Source: Escherichia phage Esco_phi_B-01. Taken from it: a stretch of DNA of 64,000 nucleotides. Where the stretch lies: sequence record OP292222.1; one strand, written 5' to 3'. Positions 26,486 to 32,631 of this stretch are shown piece by piece. The translations under genes and the position numbers were made by a program. The notes beneath the pieces were generated by a model. That model saw only the letters and a program-made list of their open reading frames with translations, ran no database searches and was not told the origin of the DNA. The first letter of the stretch is position 1. Each line of letters starts with the position of its first letter.

Positions 26486-26669
26486 CCCTAAAAACAAAGC
26501 GGAAATTATTCGGCACTGGACCGAAACCCGAGTAACTAAATGCCCTATAAAAAGTCAGCATAACACCGATAAATGGTATATTGGTGAATACGTTGAATAT
26601 ACTTTTATAGATAAAAATAAACGTAAACAGCATGTAGAAGAATATTGCTTAAAGGTGCAATGGTTATGA
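26457..26669 (+). CDS. hypothetical protein
   Basis: 70 aa. Confidence 0.4.
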   Translation: MKAHYPHPFDPKNKAEIIRHWTETRVTKCPIKSQHNTDKWYIGEYVEYTFIDKNKRKQHVEEYCLKVQWL

Positions 26670-26872
26670 GCCAAGCCCGAATTCTTAAAACGGCCAAATG
26701 TGAAAAATGCGAATGGCCAGTAATAGCCGCTTTATGCAACGATGAAATGGAATGTGAATTTGATTACTGGTGGTACTGTTCTAATAAAGGATGTTCTAAT
26801 CATAAGGGTGAAGGTTTTCATTCCGGTTATTGCGAACATCCTAAATTTGTGCGATATGGGGAACCCAAATGA
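26666..26872 (+). CDS. Cys-rich small protein (possible zinc binding)
   Basis: CEKCEWP...CNDEMECEF...CSNKGCSNH...CEHP; ATGA overlap. Confidence 0.45.
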   Translation: MSQARILKTAKCEKCEWPVIAALCNDEMECEFDYWWYCSNKGCSNHKGEGFHSGYCEHPKFVRYGEPK

Positions 26873-27042
26873 GTTTGAGTAAAGAACAGAAAGACAAATT
26901 GTTTGAGCTTATCCATGAGCTCATGGAACTTAATATAGAATGTGAATTTGATAACTCTCTGGACTGGGATTGGAGAGGTGACGAAGAGGATGAGTTTTCT
27001 AAAAAGGAAAACGAATTAATAGCTTATGTGAATACGCTTTAA
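26869..27042 (+). CDS. hypothetical small acidic protein
   Basis: 57 aa ORF below the track cutoff; ATGA overlap with upstream stop. Confidence 0.35.
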   Translation: MSLSKEQKDKLFELIHELMELNIECEFDNSLDWDWRGDEEDEFSKKENELIAYVNTL

Positions 27043-27051
27043 GAAGGTAAT

Positions 27052-27624
27052 ATGGCTCAACTTTATTTTCATTATGCGGCAATGAACTCAGGTAAGACCG
27101 CTTCATTGCTAACGGCCGCTCATAACTACAAAGAACGCGGTATGGGCGTGCTCCTTTTAAAGCCTGCGATAGACAATAGAGAATCAAGCCATACCATTTC
27201 GTCTCGTATAGGGATTAGTCAAGAGGCTAATGCAGTGACTCCGGATATGGACCTATACGAGTTCTATCGTTGGGCTGAATCTCAAAAAGATATCCACTGT
27301 GTGTTTGTGGATGAAGCCCAGTTCTTAGAACCTGCACAGATAAAACAACTGGCAAAGATAGTAGACAATTATAATGTTCCGGTTATGTGTTACGGGCTAA
27401 GAACTGATTTTCAGGGTAAACTGTTTCCTGGTTCTGCTGAATTACTCGCTACGGCAGATAAACTCGTTGAGTACAAAGGTGTGTGCCATTGCGGCCGTAA
27501 AGCTACTATGACTGCTAGGGTCCAAGATGGTGTCGCAATTAAGGACGGAGCCCAAGTTTCTATAGGTGGCAACGATTCTTACGTGTCATTGTGCAGGAAG
27601 CACTGGATAGAAATAACGAGTTGA
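27052..27624 (+). CDS. tk: thymidine kinase
   Basis: MAQLYFHYAAMNSGKTASLL P-loop; C-terminal CHCGRKAT...SLCRKHW zinc site typical of type II thymidine kinases. Confidence 0.9.
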   Translation: MAQLYFHYAAMNSGKTASLLTAAHNYKERGMGVLLLKPAIDNRESSHTISSRIGISQEANAVTPDMDLYEFYRWAESQKDIHCVFVDEAQFLEPAQIKQLAKIVDNYNVPVMCYGLRTDFQGKLFPGSAELLATADKLVEYKGVCHCGRKATMTARVQDGVAIKDGAQVSIGGNDSYVSLCRKHWIEITS

Positions 27625-27631
27625 GGGTACT

Positions 27632-27910
27632 ATGGACCTAAATTCAAAGATTTTAATTCTAGCGTTCGCTGTGGCCATCTCTTATATTGTTCTTTCGCCC
27701 ATCATGGATGATGCGGCTTACAAAAGAGAGATAGAAGTTGTAGCAGCGACGTATAATGCTAATAATAAAGAATGTCCTAATAAAAATGGAGTGGATTTAA
27801 TTAAAGCACATTATATGCTTTCTATTACCTCGCCTATACAGAGGAATTGGGTTGAATATAATTTTAACGACGTGTTCTATTCTTATTGTCGTAAGCTTAA
27901 AAAGCTATAA
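27632..27910 (+). CDS. hypothetical membrane-anchored protein
   Basis: N-terminal TM helix; 92 aa. Confidence 0.45.
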   Translation: MDLNSKILILAFAVAISYIVLSPIMDDAAYKREIEVVAATYNANNKECPNKNGVDLIKAHYMLSITSPIQRNWVEYNFNDVFYSYCRKLKKL

Positions 27911-28003
27911 ATAGTAATACTAACCGTAGAGCTTTAGCTTTTGGTAATCGCTATCGGTTAAGGCCGAAAGGCAAATTCGTATAAAATAACAAAGGACTTT
28001 TGT

Positions 28004-28297
28004 ATGGGTATTTTCCGTACAGTGGCTTGTATCCTTATGATTGGATGTTTAAGCCCGACATCTTCACTAGCAAACAAATCCGACCCTAAATTGATGGACG
28101 CCTTTGCTAGTAGTGCGATGCCAGTTTATGCGCAAATGAGTAAACCTAGTGTAAAGGCCTCCGAAGACTACTGGGCTTATGTAACTGCTTCTTGGAAAAT
28201 TTCAAATTGCAATACAATAGAGTCTTGCTCGATTGAAGGTCGGGCTATCGGAGAACGATACGCTAAACTAATGAAGGTAGATGATGAAATTCAATGA
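28004..28297 (+). CDS. rI: lysis inhibition regulator rI-like
   Basis: 97 aa, signal-anchor N-terminus, conserved Cys pair; same size as T4 RI; next to tk. Confidence 0.6.
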   Translation: MGIFRTVACILMIGCLSPTSSLANKSDPKLMDAFASSAMPVYAQMSKPSVKASEDYWAYVTASWKISNCNTIESCSIEGRAIGERYAKLMKVDDEIQ

Positions 28298-28667
28298 TTT
28301 CGTACTTAGTCGAGGGACTGAAGTAGATTCTTATATTGGTTGGCTGTTGGTTTCTTTAGCCTATTTTAAGTCAGCCCATTTGGAAACCAAAAGCTATGCA
28401 AGACACAAAGCATATGACTTCTATTATACAGAAGTTCAAGGACCACTAGACCAGTTCAGTGAACAGTATTTAGGATTTAGTGGCAAAGAATATAAAGCAT
28501 CACTACCATCTGCTTCAGAACTGCCTAAAGACCCCATAGATTTTCTTGATGAACTTATTAAAGCGTCTGATAAAATCTACAAAAATCTTCCTAAGGCCAT
28601 CCAATCGACTTTGGACGACATCACTGGTGTCTTTTACCAGACTAAGTATTTGTTAACGTTAGAATAA
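28281..28667 (+). CDS. hypothetical protein
   Basis: 128 aa overlapping rI stop. Confidence 0.5.
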   Translation: MMKFNDFVLSRGTEVDSYIGWLLVSLAYFKSAHLETKSYARHKAYDFYYTEVQGPLDQFSEQYLGFSGKEYKASLPSASELPKDPIDFLDELIKASDKIYKNLPKAIQSTLDDITGVFYQTKYLLTLE

Positions 28668-28672
28668 TCAAA

Positions 28673-28699
28673 GGTCTCACTTCGGTGGGACCTTTTTTC
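28673..28699 (+). terminator. rho-independent terminator
   Basis: GGTCTCAC-TTCG-GTGGGACC plus TTTTTT. Confidence 0.7.
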
Positions 28700-28707
28700 G
28701 TTTTAGT

Positions 28708-28760
28708 GTTTACATCCTCTAGGAACGTGATACTATAGACCTATCAACTAATGAGGAGAA
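28708..28760 (+). promoter_or_regulatory. PeSL early promoter cassette
   Basis: GTTTAC 28708-28713, TACTAT 28731-28736, CTATCAACTAATGAGGAG. Confidence 0.65.
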
Positions 28761-28764
28761 AGTT

Positions 28765-28947
28765 ATGTTAACTACCGAACAGATTGAGAAAATTATTAAA
28801 CTCGCCCAGCATATTGAAAACGCATCCAATGACCTAGCTGTTGAATATTGTGAAGGCTATTCATATTCCGGAATAGAGCAGTGTAAACGAGATTTGGCTA
28901 ACTCTAAAGCAGCCTTGGTTGAGTATCTTAATGAGTTGAAAGCATAA
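28765..28947 (+). CDS. hypothetical small protein
   Basis: 60 aa after PeSL. Confidence 0.45.
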   Translation: MLTTEQIEKIIKLAQHIENASNDLAVEYCEGYSYSGIEQCKRDLANSKAALVEYLNELKA

Positions 28948-29204
28948 TGGCTGTTGGATTTGCTAAGGACGGAGCTGAACAGCTCGAAATGGAAGCGGTC
29001 GTTCAGGCCGCTATAGTACACGCCCGTAAGCAAGTAGCAGTTGAACGTGAATCGGCTAAATATTGTTTTGATTGTGATGAAGAGATTCCTGAAGCACGAC
29101 GTCAAGCTATCAAAGGTGTGATATATTGTATAGGTTGTCAGTCAATGCATGATGAAATTTTTAAACGTGAGCCACGTAACTGTTGGCACAGGAGCATGAG
29201 ATGA
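28947..29204 (+). CDS. TraR/DksA-family C4 zinc finger protein
   Basis: CFDCDEEIPEARRQAIKGVIYCIGCQ: C-x2-C-x17-C-x2-C with the conserved IPEARR segment. Confidence 0.6.
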   Translation: MAVGFAKDGAEQLEMEAVVQAAIVHARKQVAVERESAKYCFDCDEEIPEARRQAIKGVIYCIGCQSMHDEIFKREPRNCWHRSMR

Positions 29205-29295
29205 TTTACTATCTTGAACCTTGGGCTTGGCTTACAATGCTTATTGGTCCAGTTTTAATGGGTTTATTCTTTTCATGGTTAGCGAGGAAACTGTA

Positions 29296-29493
29296 ATGTT
29301 ATACGACCCGAGTGGTAATTCTGAAGATGGTATTATTGTCCTTTTGGCAGATGTTGAAGAGTCTGACGATGACATCTTTGTTAAAGATTGGGAAGAAAAA
29401 GGCGGAATCACGCTCCAACAAGAAAATGATATGATTTGTCTGAATGCAAGCCAAGTCGAAGAACTTTATAGTATTTTAAAACATAACCGTTGA
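29296..29493 (+). CDS. hypothetical acidic protein
   Basis: ATG after GAGGAAACTGTA. Confidence 0.45.
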   Translation: MLYDPSGNSEDGIIVLLADVEESDDDIFVKDWEEKGGITLQQENDMICLNASQVEELYSILKHNR

Positions 29494-29503
29494 GGAACAG
29501 AAA

Positions 29504-30064
29504 ATGATTATTGAAACAACTGAATTGTTTGGTGAACTGACCGCTGAAGTAGTTGATAATGCAATTGTGCTTTCACAAGAAGACGATAAAATCGTACTAA
29601 CTATCCAAGATATTAAACCACTTTATGATTTAAAGGTTTTGGATAAAGATGGGTATCTTGATGGACGCCATAGAGCATCGTTTGATATTAACGACGATGT
29701 ATGGGCCCAGATTTATAAAAATGAAGACGGATTTAATATCGAAACTGATACGGAATGTCTAAGCATTAGGAATTCTAGTAATTTCTTTAAATGTATTTTT
29801 AAACTGTTCCAGGAAGAATGCAAGCCTGAAGTTGAATGGAAAGTTCCAGGTCAAGATGCGGTGATTCGTTCTAGTGAAACATTTGAAGGTGATGAAGAAG
29901 AAATGGATTATGATACCGAACTAACCGTGTATCAACACCAGGGCCGTGATTTGCTATCCTTGGTCCAAAGACACGACGGTGAAAGTGAATTGGTATTTAC
30001 TAAAGACGAGCTAAAAGTTTTAGTCTCTTATCTGAACTCTGTTATCCCAACTATGAACTCTTAA
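29504..30064 (+). CDS. hypothetical acidic protein
   Basis: 186 aa; RBS GAGGAACAGAAA upstream. Confidence 0.5.
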   Translation: MIIETTELFGELTAEVVDNAIVLSQEDDKIVLTIQDIKPLYDLKVLDKDGYLDGRHRASFDINDDVWAQIYKNEDGFNIETDTECLSIRNSSNFFKCIFKLFQEECKPEVEWKVPGQDAVIRSSETFEGDEEEMDYDTELTVYQHQGRDLLSLVQRHDGESELVFTKDELKVLVSYLNSVIPTMNS

Positions 30065-30074
30065 GGAAAATATT

Positions 30075-30527
30075 ATGATTATCAATTCAAACTCTTGGCA
30101 CGTTAAATTACACGACCGTTTTTACGACCGTCATTCTCGACCACACTCTTTGTGTGCTTATTTCTGGAAAATGGTTTGGGCTTGTTTTGCTTGTGCAGTT
30201 GTTGCAGGTAGTACGCTTTTTGGATTAACTGTTGCAGGAGCTGGTGTATTAGAGCATTTCTTTGTATTAAGTACTCCCGTTCTGTTGAGCCTCGGGTTTG
30301 TTTTAGGGTTGACTGCAATAGCTCTTATTATTGCGCTATCCATCGGTTTGGCATTCGGTGCGATGAATTTACACGCATGGTATGATGCCCGTAAAGAAGA
30401 AAAGGAATGGGAACGAATTAAAGCTAAACGTGAAGGAAAGGAAATTAAAGAAAATATAGTCGTCCAATACATTAAAGCTCGTAAATCTAAGATGTGTCCT
30501 GTAATTCACTTCGAGAACAAAGAATGA
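30075..30527 (+). CDS. hypothetical membrane protein
   Basis: 150 aa; three predicted TM helices. Confidence 0.5.
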   Translation: MIINSNSWHVKLHDRFYDRHSRPHSLCAYFWKMVWACFACAVVAGSTLFGLTVAGAGVLEHFFVLSTPVLLSLGFVLGLTAIALIIALSIGLAFGAMNLHAWYDARKEEKEWERIKAKREGKEIKENIVVQYIKARKSKMCPVIHFENKE

Positions 30528-31534
30528 GAACAGTTATGAAAGGCTACTTCGGTAGCCATCTTTATGGAACAAGTACTCCGGAATCCGATGTCGATTTTAA
30601 AGAAATCTTTGTTCCACATCCGCGTGATATTCTGTTAGGTACGGCAATGAACCATACCAACCTGAACACGAATAACACTGCTTCCAAAAACACTAAAGAT
30701 GATGTTGACCATGAGCTTTACAGCCTGAAATATTTCTTTAAACTGGCTGCTGAAGGCGAAACCGTTGCTCTGGATATGCTCCACACTCCACCTGAACTAG
30801 TGGTTAAATCTGATTTACCTGATGTATGGAAATTTATCCAAGATAACCGTTCACGTTTCTATACAACTAACATGAAAGCCTATTTAGGGTACGTCCGTAA
30901 GCAAGCTTCTAAATATGGTGTTAAGGGTTCTCGATTGGCTGCTCTGCGTGGTGTACTGGCAATTGTTAACCAGATTCCTGAACAGTGGGTCGATTATCAA
31001 GAAGGCATTCCAGATCGTTTACGTCGGACTAAGGTAGAAGATATCAAGCACAGGCTCCCTGAAAACGAGTTTTGCGAATGGGTATTTCATAACCATGAGA
31101 AAACAGGTCCTCAAACGTTCTATACTGTCCTCGGACGTAAGTACCAAACTACTTTGTCATTGGTCGAGCTTAAGCAATCTCTGAATAAACTCGATGCCGA
31201 ATATGGCGAACGTGCTCGTAAGGCTGAAGCCAATGAAGGTATTGACTGGAAAGCTCTGAGCCATGCTTATCGTGCCGGGTACCAATTGATGGAAATCTAC
31301 CAAACTGGTGACTTGGTATTCCCATTGCGTGAAGCCTCTATCATTAAGCTGATTAAAGCTGGTGAATTACCATTTAAAGAAGTTCAAGAACTTCTTGAAG
31401 ATACTGTCGATTTAGTTGAAGTTCTGGCCATCCAGGCAGCTAAGAATGGTATGCCTGCGAAGGTGGACATGAAGTTCTGGGACAAGTTCGTCGAAGAGGT
31501 GTACCTTGACAACCACAACTCTTATTACCGTTAA
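30524..31534 (+). CDS. predicted nucleotidyltransferase (Pol-beta superfamily); alternative start 30536
   Basis: N-terminal YFGSHLYGTSTPESDVDF fits hG[GS]...[DE]h[DE]h; followed by terminator and PeSL. Confidence 0.55.
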   Translation: MRTVMKGYFGSHLYGTSTPESDVDFKEIFVPHPRDILLGTAMNHTNLNTNNTASKNTKDDVDHELYSLKYFFKLAAEGETVALDMLHTPPELVVKSDLPDVWKFIQDNRSRFYTTNMKAYLGYVRKQASKYGVKGSRLAALRGVLAIVNQIPEQWVDYQEGIPDRLRRTKVEDIKHRLPENEFCEWVFHNHEKTGPQTFYTVLGRKYQTTLSLVELKQSLNKLDAEYGERARKAEANEGIDWKALSHAYRAGYQLMEIYQTGDLVFPLREASIIKLIKAGELPFKEVQELLEDTVDLVEVLAIQAAKNGMPAKVDMKFWDKFVEEVYLDNHNSYYR

Positions 31535-31542
31535 CTAAATTT

Positions 31543-31566
31543 AGGACCCTTCGGGGTCCTTTTTTG
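31543..31566 (+). terminator. rho-independent terminator
   Basis: GGACCC-TTCG-GGGTCC plus TTTTTT. Confidence 0.7.
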
Positions 31567-31584
31567 GGTTTAGTGCAAAAAAGA

Positions 31585-31640
31585 GTTTACACTCTCGTAG
31601 AGCATGTTATTATGGACCTATCAAATCTACTGAGTGAAAC
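31585..31640 (+). promoter_or_regulatory. PeSL-like early promoter
   Basis: GTTTAC 31585-31590, 17-nt spacer, TATTAT 31608-31613, CTATCAAATCTACTGAG. Confidence 0.55.
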
Positions 31641-31650
31641 GGAGAATATA

Positions 31651-32631
31651 ATGTTAACTATCAAAATCAACAAAGGTATCTATCGCGGTAATGAAATCTC
31701 TGGTACGTTCATGAGTTCAGGTAAAACCTGGTTCCCTAATAAAATTCATGAATCCGAAGCTCATCTCGGTGATGGCAAGGTATTTGTACAGATTGATGGT
31801 GTTGAACGTGGTGTGTGGGTGTTCAAATGCGACATCGAAATGGAAGGTGCTGAAGCTCATGCAATGGTTACTGAATCCTCTGAAGAAATGAAACATCGCA
31901 TCAACAAACGTTTTAAAGTAATGAACATGATGACTAACGGAATCATCGATGGTAAAATTCGTTCCCTTATCATCTCTGGTGCCGCAGGTATTGGTAAAAC
32001 GTATTCTTTGGATAAAGCATTACAAAATGCCCACGAAAATGAAACTATCGAATATAAATCAATCAACGGAAAGATTAGTGGAATCGGTCTTTACGAGCAG
32101 CTTTGGAATAACCGCGGCCCTAATAGTGTTCTTCTTATTGATGATGTTGATGTATTCTCTGACATGGATATCCTGAACCTTCTGAAAGCCGCATTGGATA
32201 CCGGTGAGAAACGTAAGGTGTGCTGGAGCACTTCAAGTTCTTATCTCGATGATAAAAATATCGATAAAGAATTCGAATACGAAGGCACCATCGTGTTCAT
32301 CACCAACGTTGATATTGACCGTGAATTAGAGCGTGGAACTAAACTTGCTCCACACCTCCAAGCTTTAGTATCTCGTTCAGTTTACTTAGACCTCGGAGTT
32401 CACTCGAATGAAGAGATTATGGTTCGTGTTGAAGACGTTATCCTGTCCACTGATATGATGCAAAACCGAGGTCTGACTGATGCTGAGACTTATCAAGCTC
32501 TAGCATGGATGAAGGCCAATGTATCTCGTCTTCGTAACGTATCATTACGCACGGCTCTTTACCTGGCGGACTTCATTGCCACCGATAAAAATGACTGGAG
32601 CGAAATCGCTGAAGTTACACTTCTGAAATAA
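31651..32631 (+). CDS. AAA-type P-loop ATPase (hypothetical)
   Basis: Walker A GAAGIGKT, Walker B VLLIDDVD; ATG after GGAGAATATA. Confidence 0.6.
   Translation: MLTIKINKGIYRGNEISGTFMSSGKTWFPNKIHESEAHLGDGKVFVQIDGVERGVWVFKCDIEMEGAEAHAMVTESSEEMKHRINKRFKVMNMMTNGIIDGKIRSLIISGAAGIGKTYSLDKALQNAHENETIEYKSINGKISGIGLYEQLWNNRGPNSVLLIDDVDVFSDMDILNLLKAALDTGEKRKVCWSTSSSYLDDKNIDKEFEYEGTIVFITNVDIDRELERGTKLAPHLQALVSRSVYLDLGVHSNEEIMVRVEDVILSTDMMQNRGLTDAETYQALAWMKANVSRLRNVSLRTALYLADFIATDKNDWSEIAEVTLLK

Follow-up and report, generated by a model that had tools for sequence, protein, structure and literature searches.

An early-region, YbiI-type zinc-ribbon protein of the TraR/DksA family in a T4-like coliphage: a candidate ligand of the RNA polymerase secondary channel

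The 64,000-nucleotide stretch of Escherichia phage Esco_phi_B-01 analyzed in this study (sequence record OP292222.1; hereafter the window) carries at positions 28947-29204 a gene for a zinc-ribbon protein of 85 amino acids (aa), which is a member of the TraR/DksA family well beyond the spacing of its cysteines. It is a functional gene under strong purifying selection. Sequence comparison places the protein on the YbiI branch of the family, which is uncharacterized, and not on the branch of the tested TraR proteins. We lean, with modest confidence, towards the reading that it is an early-expressed ligand of the host RNA polymerase (RNAP), on which it would exert a TraR-like modulating effect. 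The first part of this reading is the firmer one: from its homology and architecture we infer that the protein most likely binds the secondary channel of the host enzyme, whereas an output equal to that of TraR is much less certain. The gene and its elements are as follows:

28947..29204, + strand: gene for the 85-aa TraR/DksA-family (YbiI-type) zinc-ribbon protein (evidence from the open reading frame (ORF), hidden Markov models (HMM), fold and selection)
28947..28982, + strand: N-terminal tip motif, residues 1-12, MAVGFAKDGAEQ, standing where TraR has DxxDxA (conservation in phage-type homologues)
28965..29033, + strand: N-terminal long helix (residues 7-29, predicted); in TraR, the corresponding helix enters the secondary channel (AlphaFold2 (AF2) model; Foldseek matches to 5w1s_M and 6n57_M)
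29064..29138, + strand: C4 zinc ribbon C40/C43...C61/C64, including IPEARR (invariant residues, Pfam match)
29130..29159, + strand: C-terminal helix (residues 62-71, predicted), matching the one that TraR places on the beta lobe-Si1 (AF2 model; role in TraR from PMC6970531)
29160..29201, + strand: C-terminal tail, residues 72-85, FKREPRNCWHRSMR, specific to the phage clade and without counterpart in TraR (conservation in 42 homologues)

The ORF runs from an ATG start to a TGA stop and translates to MAVGFAKDGAEQLEMEAVVQAAIVHARKQVAVERESAKYCFDCDEEIPEARRQAIKGVIYCIGCQSMHDEIFKREPRNCWHRSMR. This translation contains the peptide quoted in the initial annotation of the DNA, CFDCDEEIPEARRQAIKGVIYCIGCQ, and bears out its description of an 85-aa frame with a C-x2-C-x17-C-x2-C finger and an IPEARR segment. 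The assignment to the TraR/DksA family made there is confirmed by HMM searches. The protein scores 38.1 bits (E 1.6e-9, residues 38-66) against the Pfam C4 zinc-finger family PF01258 (zf-dskA_traR), for which the gathering score is 24.9, and it matches PHROG 54 (‘DksA-like zinc-finger protein’) with an E-value of 4.6e-20. Among the NCBIfam models, the YbiI-type model NF008243 (PRK11019) is matched best, over residues 1-71 (E 2.3e-21, 76.0 bits, equivalog cut-off 96), followed by the TraR subfamily model TIGR02419 (E 1.1e-13, 51.5 bits, cut-off 59.7), the equivalog NF010268 (29.2 bits, cut-off 108) and the DksA model NF033459 (13.4 bits, cut-off 105); all of these scores lie below their curated cut-offs. 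No match was obtained among the PADLOC defence models. The nearest solved relative is YbiI (2kgo), which is found at full length with a single-sequence E-value of 3.6e-9 and a profile E-value of 4.7e-27, and after it ranks TraR (5w1s and 6n57; profile E-value 3e-13). When a profile of phage and YbiI-type proteins was aligned with hhalign to 28 TraR-type proteins, the probability was 99.7% (E 7.9e-27, 69 columns). The full-length similarity to YbiI, this alignment and the fold described below thus carry the family membership well past the cysteine spacing, the lack of any further family match being one part of what the initial annotation had named as a refutation.

The AF2 model of the protein has a mean predicted local distance difference test score (pLDDT) of 72, with low confidence at residues 1-4 and 79-82. 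Its best structural matches are YbiI and RNAP-bound TraR, those to DksA being weaker. In Foldseek, the RNAP-bound TraR structures 5w1s_M and 6n57_M give template modelling (TM) scores of 0.72 and 0.70 with root-mean-square deviations of 2.3 and 2.8 A, respectively, which indicates that the predicted scaffold is that of TraR. The model shows the TraR-type architecture, in which a single long helix at the N-terminus is followed by a globular zinc domain and a C-terminal helix within about 70-90 aa, and hhalign aligns the predicted helix 62-71 with TraR's C-terminal helix. With its 85 aa and single N-terminal helix, the protein does not have the features of DksA proper, i.e. a two-helix coiled coil, residues for guanosine tetraphosphate (ppGpp) and a length of about 150 aa.

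In TraR, three functional elements have been defined by experiment: the DxxDxA motif, which forms the tip of the N-terminal helix; the globular domain, whose R48 sits on the rim helices while E46, R49 and K50 sit on beta-prime Si3; and the C-terminal helix on the beta lobe-Si1 (PMC9239242, PMC6970531). The phage protein carries the IPEARR contact motif of the second element in identical form, is predicted to have the third, and does not have the first. IPEARR occupies residues 47-52 (nt 29085-29102) and corresponds letter for letter to TraR residues 44-49, while the spacing C40-x2-C43-x17-C61-x2-C64 is that of C37/C40/C58/C61 in F-plasmid TraR. Conservation was assessed in 73 homologues, which include 24 cellular YbiI-type proteins, and in a phage-type subset of 42. 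The four cysteines as well as I47, P48, R51 and R52 are invariant in all 73. The TraR contact residues P45, E46, R48 and R49 are represented by P48, E49, R51 and R52, with little or no variation among the homologues; TraR P43 and K50 are not kept and are replaced by E46 and Q53. It is this identical motif for the rim helices and Si3, along with the matching architecture and the invariant N-terminal end on a long helix, that makes RNAP binding likely.

The ratio of non-synonymous to synonymous substitution rates (dN/dS) of the gene is 0.06 against phage dhabil and 0.10 against phage Merlin, with synonymous changes throughout and synonymous sites near saturation; the computable comparisons with the jumbo phage Turkey5 are similar, though synonymous sites are saturated there. 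The length of 85 aa is kept in 42 homologues from T4-like and jumbo phages. These values, together with HMM E-values down to 1e-21, effectively exclude that the ORF arose by chance or is what is left of a decaying gene, its cysteine pattern being fortuitous, an idea to which the abundance of short ORFs in this region and the reduction of the Mosigvirus copy to a chimeric 54-aa ORF might otherwise lend some weight.

The window comes from a T4-like coliphage of the genus Dhakavirus (JS10/JS98/MN04 group), and the 4.6 kb around the zinc-ribbon gene are 95-96% identical to those genomes. The gene is the second in a string of small genes, whose immediate setting comprises:

28670..28695, + strand: intrinsic terminator ending the tk-rI-rI.-1 unit, with an 11-bp stem, a UUCG loop and a T run (RNA fold, conservation)
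28708..28736, + strand: T4-type early sigma-70 promoter GTTTACA-N-TGaTACTAT with an extended -10 element (site class, conservation)
28765..28947, + strand: mobD.3 homologue, 60 aa, DUF7438, first gene of the string (66% identical to T4 MobD.3)
29201..29296, + strand: 31-aa predicted membrane ORF, phrog_12165, whose ATG overlaps the zinc-ribbon TGA (ATGA) and whose TAA overlaps the next ATG
29296-29493, + strand: DUF7189 ORF, whose start overlaps the stop of the 31-aa ORF (TAATG)

The terminator has a folding energy of -16.1 kcal/mol (z -5.8; none of 200 shuffled sequences was equally stable) and delimits, on the upstream side, the transcription unit of the zinc-ribbon gene. The promoter lies 29 nt upstream of mobD.3. 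Both elements are kept as a pair behind rI.-1 in dhabil and in the Moonvirus Merlin, where the sequence of the stem differs. The hexamer GTTTAC is the -35 consensus of T4 early promoters, and the pattern GTTTAC-N16-18-TAnnnT occurs 18 times in the window, each time on the + strand, against an expectation of 2.8 +/- 1.7 for both strands:

10348, 10647, 13922, 14707, 21943, 22645, 24585, 28708, 31585, + strand: GTTTAC-class sites, first half (pattern search of the window)
32986, 35550, 37923, 40074, 40772, 41195, 53517, 61841, 62800, + strand: GTTTAC-class sites, second half (pattern search of the window)

Presumably these 18 sites are the early promoters of the phage and map the early transcription units of the window. 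Many of them share a longer consensus, GTTTACATCTCCTnTAGnnnTGATACTAT. Directly upstream of the gene string, neither a late promoter (TATAAATA) nor a MotA-box middle promoter was found. Since a promoter of the T4 early class, conserved across genera, precedes the string, we infer on good grounds that the zinc-ribbon gene is expressed early. Furthermore, the TAA stop of mobD.3 overlaps its ATG (TAATG), and the overlapping stop and start codons of the four small genes (TAATG, ATGA, TAATG) indicate translational coupling.

In the mechanism that we favour, the unmodified host sigma-70 RNAP would transcribe the gene from the T4-type early promoter, and its product would be translated by coupling to the upstream mobD.3. 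The protein would then bind RNAP and not DNA. At the mouth of the secondary channel, the zinc ribbon, which includes IPEARR, would rest against the rim helices of beta-prime and Si3; the C-terminal helix would contact the beta lobe-Si1, and the N-terminal helix would extend down the channel toward the active site. This would alter the kinetics of open complexes independently of ppGpp, such that host promoters with short-lived open complexes (rRNA, r-protein) would be damped and phage transcription favoured. The initial annotation had envisaged an early phage copy that retunes host transcription. Of this proposal, the family membership stands and the early timing is supported by the conserved promoter; its functional half is kept conditional here, as DxxDxA is absent and the nearest relative is YbiI instead of TraR.

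Several observations weigh against a TraR-like effect. The protein begins with MAVGFAKDGA and thus does not show the DxxDxA motif of TraR-type regulators, whose residues D3, D6 and A8 are invariant among 28 TraR-type sequences. This motif is required for the activity of TraR and of lambda Orf73, the latter being crippled by D3N or D6N and the former by D6N (PMC9239242, PMC2613031). Both hmmsearch and hhalign leave residues 1-12 unaligned to the TraR tip and begin their alignments at residue 13-19; the register is offset by 3, and its gapless extension places D8 opposite TraR A5. To pair D8 and A10 with TraR D6 and A8, a slip of one residue is needed, and even so D3 is replaced by F5 (W in YbiI). 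An alternative MAFFT alignment, in which D8 falls under TraR D3, was rejected, as hmmsearch and hhalign set the register at offset 3 with the tip unaligned. The N-terminus is also 2-3 residues longer than that of TraR, of which S2 is located 4.3 A from the catalytic Mg (PMC6970531), and in VHML Orf8 an N-terminal extension has been suggested to lower activity (PMC9239242). To these points we add the scores below cut-off for NF008243, TIGR02419 and NF010268, the iron-related role that was favoured for YbiI, a protein without an established function (PMC2613031), and the dispensability of the gene in some lineages, seen from the T4 syntenic region without a copy and from the chimeric remnant in Mosigvirus JS09. 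Lastly, a literature search returned no binding or transcription data for any member of the phage clade. As the tested TraR proteins carry DxxDxA and the 85-aa protein carries another tip, the strength or the nature of the output may differ; Gp34, which does not have D3, binds RNAP as well as TraR does and is less active (PMC9239242).

The tip is nevertheless strongly conserved in its own form. Residues 1-12 are kept in 39 to 42 of the 42 phage-type homologues, with M1, A2, G4 and Q12 invariant, and in comparisons between the window, Merlin and Turkey5 they show 4-5 synonymous and 0 non-synonymous differences. They conform to the pattern MA-x-G-[FW]-A-x-D-x-A, of which M1, A2, G4, D8 and A10 are kept in at least 90% of the 73 sequences. 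The tip MA-x-G-[FW]-A-K-D-G-A characterizes the YbiI branch as a whole: among 148 library representatives, 62 carry the YbiI-type tip, and 28 carry DxxDxA without it.

The C-terminal tail is comparably constrained: R74, R77, N78, C79, W80, H81, R82 and M84 are invariant in 42 of 42 phage-type homologues, and over the last 14 residues the window, Merlin and Turkey5 differ by 3-6 synonymous and 0-3 non-synonymous changes. The codons for residues 82-83 contain AGGAG, and we considered that the conservation might be an artefact of a Shine-Dalgarno sequence of the downstream gene. This was rejected on account of the jumbo phages Turkey5 and SE_PL, which keep the tail through synonymous changes (including a serine AGC-to-TCT change) although their downstream DNA is unrelated; the constraint therefore acts on the protein and not on the ribosome-binding site of the next gene. 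The phage clade has PRNCWHRSMR where cellular YbiI-type members have YNRRGSKDSQLR, and the YbiI-type pattern [YF]NRRGSKDSQL[RK] is absent from the 85-aa protein. As both tails have R82 and the terminal S/Q-[ML]-R in common and one homologue (P0082) has an intermediate tail, ...HNRKVWHRSMR, the phage tail is probably a diverged YbiI-type tail. Outside tail and tip, H25, Q29 and Y60 are further clade-specific invariants; that H25, C79 and H81 might form a second metal site is speculation. A homologue in the same rI-to-nrdC.11 region of the Karamvirus EnA02 (L009 2001-2270) ends like the cellular YbiI-type proteins, in ...SYNRRGSKDSQLR, and its tip is a variant, MASGWGPSDDGFAA, so that at least two tail types exist among T4-like phages.

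Tip and tail are the basis of a first alternative, in which the protein occupies the secondary channel and its output is unlike that of TraR: it might plug the active site or the entry of nucleoside triphosphates, exclude the host's DksA, GreA and GreB in the course of infection or, in another form of the idea, act through its tail on the phage-modified polymerase. The aromatic, glycine-rich tip G4-F5-A6-K7-D8-G9-A10, the longer N-terminus and the invariant tail rich in Cys, His and Arg would then be its working parts. We regard this as unlikely, though it accommodates the combination of a shared scaffold with a different, invariant tip and the protein-level selection on both ends across unrelated phage lineages. 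Known channel factors do differ by their tips, the Gre factors having DxxExA and Rnk being a competitor (PMC9239242), and the TraR of VP882 is reported to work in complex with a partner protein (bioRxiv 10.64898/2026.07.27.740977). Yet overexpressed YbiI reportedly gives DksA-like complementation (PMC2613031), no neighbouring gene is conserved across lineages as a potential partner, and the tail is modelled with low confidence.

A broader version would have the YbiI-type proteins, including the phage clade, form a functionally distinct class of secondary-channel factors, in which the TraR scaffold delivers the invariant tip G-[FW]-A-K-D-G-A, borne by a longer N-terminus, to the active site of RNAP. 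On the phage side, with the added RNCWHR tail and the invariant H25, virulent T4-like and jumbo phages would plug or retarget the polymerase or shut out DksA and Gre instead of mimicking DksA-ppGpp. We offer the two parts as one proposal, and a doubtful one.

YbiI (2kgo, 88 aa) is the best sequence match, over the full length, and has in common with the phage protein the MA-x-G-[FW]-A-x-D-x-A tip, an IPxARR ribbon, a similar size and a basic C-terminal tail ending in S-x-[LM]-R; the identity is only 37%, and the tails themselves differ (YNRRGSKDSQLR against PRNCWHRSMR). While YbiI is encoded by a sigma-S-dependent chromosomal gene (PMC4447067), the 85-aa protein is the product of an early gene in a virulent phage. 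When overexpressed, YbiI rescues the auxotrophy of a dksA mutant and fails to rescue a ppGpp0 strain, which is given as ‘data not shown’ (PMC2613031), and our search of the YbiI literature yielded no functional data beyond that statement.

It is conceivable that the phage protein is a YbiI-type zinc-ribbon protein with a target other than RNAP, such as a nucleic acid or another protein of host or phage, or with a role related to metals like the one suggested for YbiI, and that its likeness to TraR reflects shared ancestry only. The closest characterizable relative is indeed without a proven function, the phage protein does not have the tip motif and stays below the curated cut-offs of the family models, and some C4 TraR/DksA homologues without DxxDxA do not work like DksA (PMC9239242). 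Those homologues, however, are longer and have no C-terminal helix, whereas the phage protein reproduces the whole architecture of RNAP-bound TraR with an IPEARR that is identical and invariant, and a factor inserting into the channel would be expected to show just such a long helix with an invariant N-terminal end. We consider a target other than RNAP rather improbable and retain channel binding with a TraR-like effect as the preferred reading.

Among the characterized proteins, F-plasmid TraR agrees with the 85-aa protein in architecture, predicted fold, cysteine spacing and IPEARR, at about 28% identity, and neither has the second coiled-coil helix or the ppGpp site of DksA. It differs in having DxxDxA and a shorter N-terminus, and in not having the 12-residue extra tail. 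DksA is a distant homologue with the same zinc-ribbon core and Pfam family (Foldseek 7khi_M, E 0.06; profile match 1tjl, E 0.01), but is unlike the phage protein in its 151 aa, two-helix coiled coil, DxxDxA tip, ppGpp-binding residues and ppGpp dependence. Further parallels are the tested phage homologues of TraR, i.e. lambda Orf73, P2 Orf82, VHML Orf8, VP882 Orf61 and X. bovienii Gp34, all five of which bind RNAP and inhibit rrnB P1 (Gopalkrishnan et al. 2022, PMC9239242). Lambda Orf73 raises burst size, and P2 Orf82 is expressed from an early promoter (PMC9239242). Like the 85-aa protein, these are small TraR-family proteins of the lytic programme. They come, however, from temperate phages and from the DxxDxA branch (MADIIDSA in lambda Orf73, MPDNVDFI in P2 Orf82), whereas the 85-aa protein belongs by sequence to the YbiI branch and to a virulent T4-like phage that already reprograms RNAP by other means.

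The takeover of host RNAP by T4-type phages, a textbook example, proceeds stepwise, through ADP-ribosylation, AsiA/MotA and gp55/gp33, and to our knowledge a secondary-channel factor is no part of this picture. If channel binding holds true, it would add a further, horizontally mobile layer of polymerase control in virulent phages and help to find out what the unexplained E. coli protein YbiI does. If the protein acts like TraR or lambda Orf73, a known mechanism would merely be extended to another phage group. TraR-family phage proteins are an established class of polymerase regulators, to which the 85-aa protein is an ordinary and not a surprising addition.

Relatives were found with tblastn in 752 phage records, mostly in T4-like phages of Klebsiella, Escherichia, Acinetobacter, Enterobacter and Aeromonas, but also in jumbo phages (about 350 kb). 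In T4, the search covered only the syntenic rI.-1-to-mobD.1 region, and this contains no homologue (best tblastn E 5.1), which marks the gene as an accessory gene of the variable rI-to-nrdC.11 region. By analogy with QisA and TraR of VP882, a conserved partner gene was considered and rejected: in Merlin, Turkey5, SE_PL and EnA02, none of the genes next to the homologue is related to mobD.3, the 31-aa ORF or DUF7189. As neighbours differ between lineages, the zinc-ribbon gene travels alone.

The protein is 100% identical to the copies in MN04 and JS10, and thus already present in GenBank. Earlier annotations of it and its homologues read ‘hypothetical protein PA4870’ in JS10, ‘C-4 type zinc finger protein’ in dhabil, ‘zinc finger protein (DksA/TraR-like domain)’ in Merlin and ‘TraR/DksA C4-type zinc finger protein’ in Turkey5, and a dksA/traR Pfam match in a T4-like phage was tabulated in 2006 (PMC1524935). 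On the level of annotation, gene and family assignment were therefore known; new here are the placement on the YbiI branch, the invariant tip in place of DxxDxA, a phage-specific tail under strong selection and, for a virulent T4-like phage, the location behind an early promoter.

In the Mosigvirus-type phages JS09, HX01 and DCP548, a chimeric ORF of 54 aa is found (phrog_25948; P0044, P0048, P0063, P0065). Its first ~25 residues correspond to the N-terminus of DUF7189, and its last 29 to the C-terminal end of the zinc-ribbon protein, IYCVGCQSMHDEIFKREPRNCWHRSMR. In JS09, it lies at L005 2459-2623, equivalent to KF582788.2 113197-113361, and the related pieces of the window are 29296-29370 and 29118-29204; a small membrane ORF and then a full DUF7189 gene follow. 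With the helix and the first CxxC replaced, the TraR-like gene has decayed in the Mosigvirus lineage while its 3' end persisted.

The gene string is flanked by the following genes:

27052-27624, + strand: tk, followed by a 92-aa ORF and rI (start 28004)
28281-28667, + strand: rI.-1 (DUF5856), preceding the intrinsic terminator
29504-30064, + strand: mobD.1 homologue (Pfam T4_y05I_N, E 9e-40; T4_y05I_C, E 8e-19)

The product of rI.-1 is named ‘starvation-inducible transcriptional regulator’ by RefSeq and PHROGs; as Pfam lists only a domain of unknown function for it, this functional name looks unsupported. Between rI.-1 and mobD.3, JS10 and dhabil have about 240 extra bases (window 28667-28765 against L001 2164-2503 and L002 2164-2506), which in dhabil hold a 76-aa ORF, dhabil_161; it follows immediately on the same terminator and promoter and is absent from the phage of the window. 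The segment just upstream of the gene string is a hot spot for insertions and deletions. The Pfam families of mobD.1 are described as ‘y05I-like putative transcription factor’, so that its product is a second possible transcription-related protein of the early string. Downstream of it, on the + strand, follow a membrane protein, nrdC.11 and the next strong terminator near 31543. The sole T4 late-promoter consensus (TATAAATA) within 26500-31700 is located at 27906-27913, about 90 nt upstream of the rI start, which suggests additional late expression of this lysis-inhibition gene.

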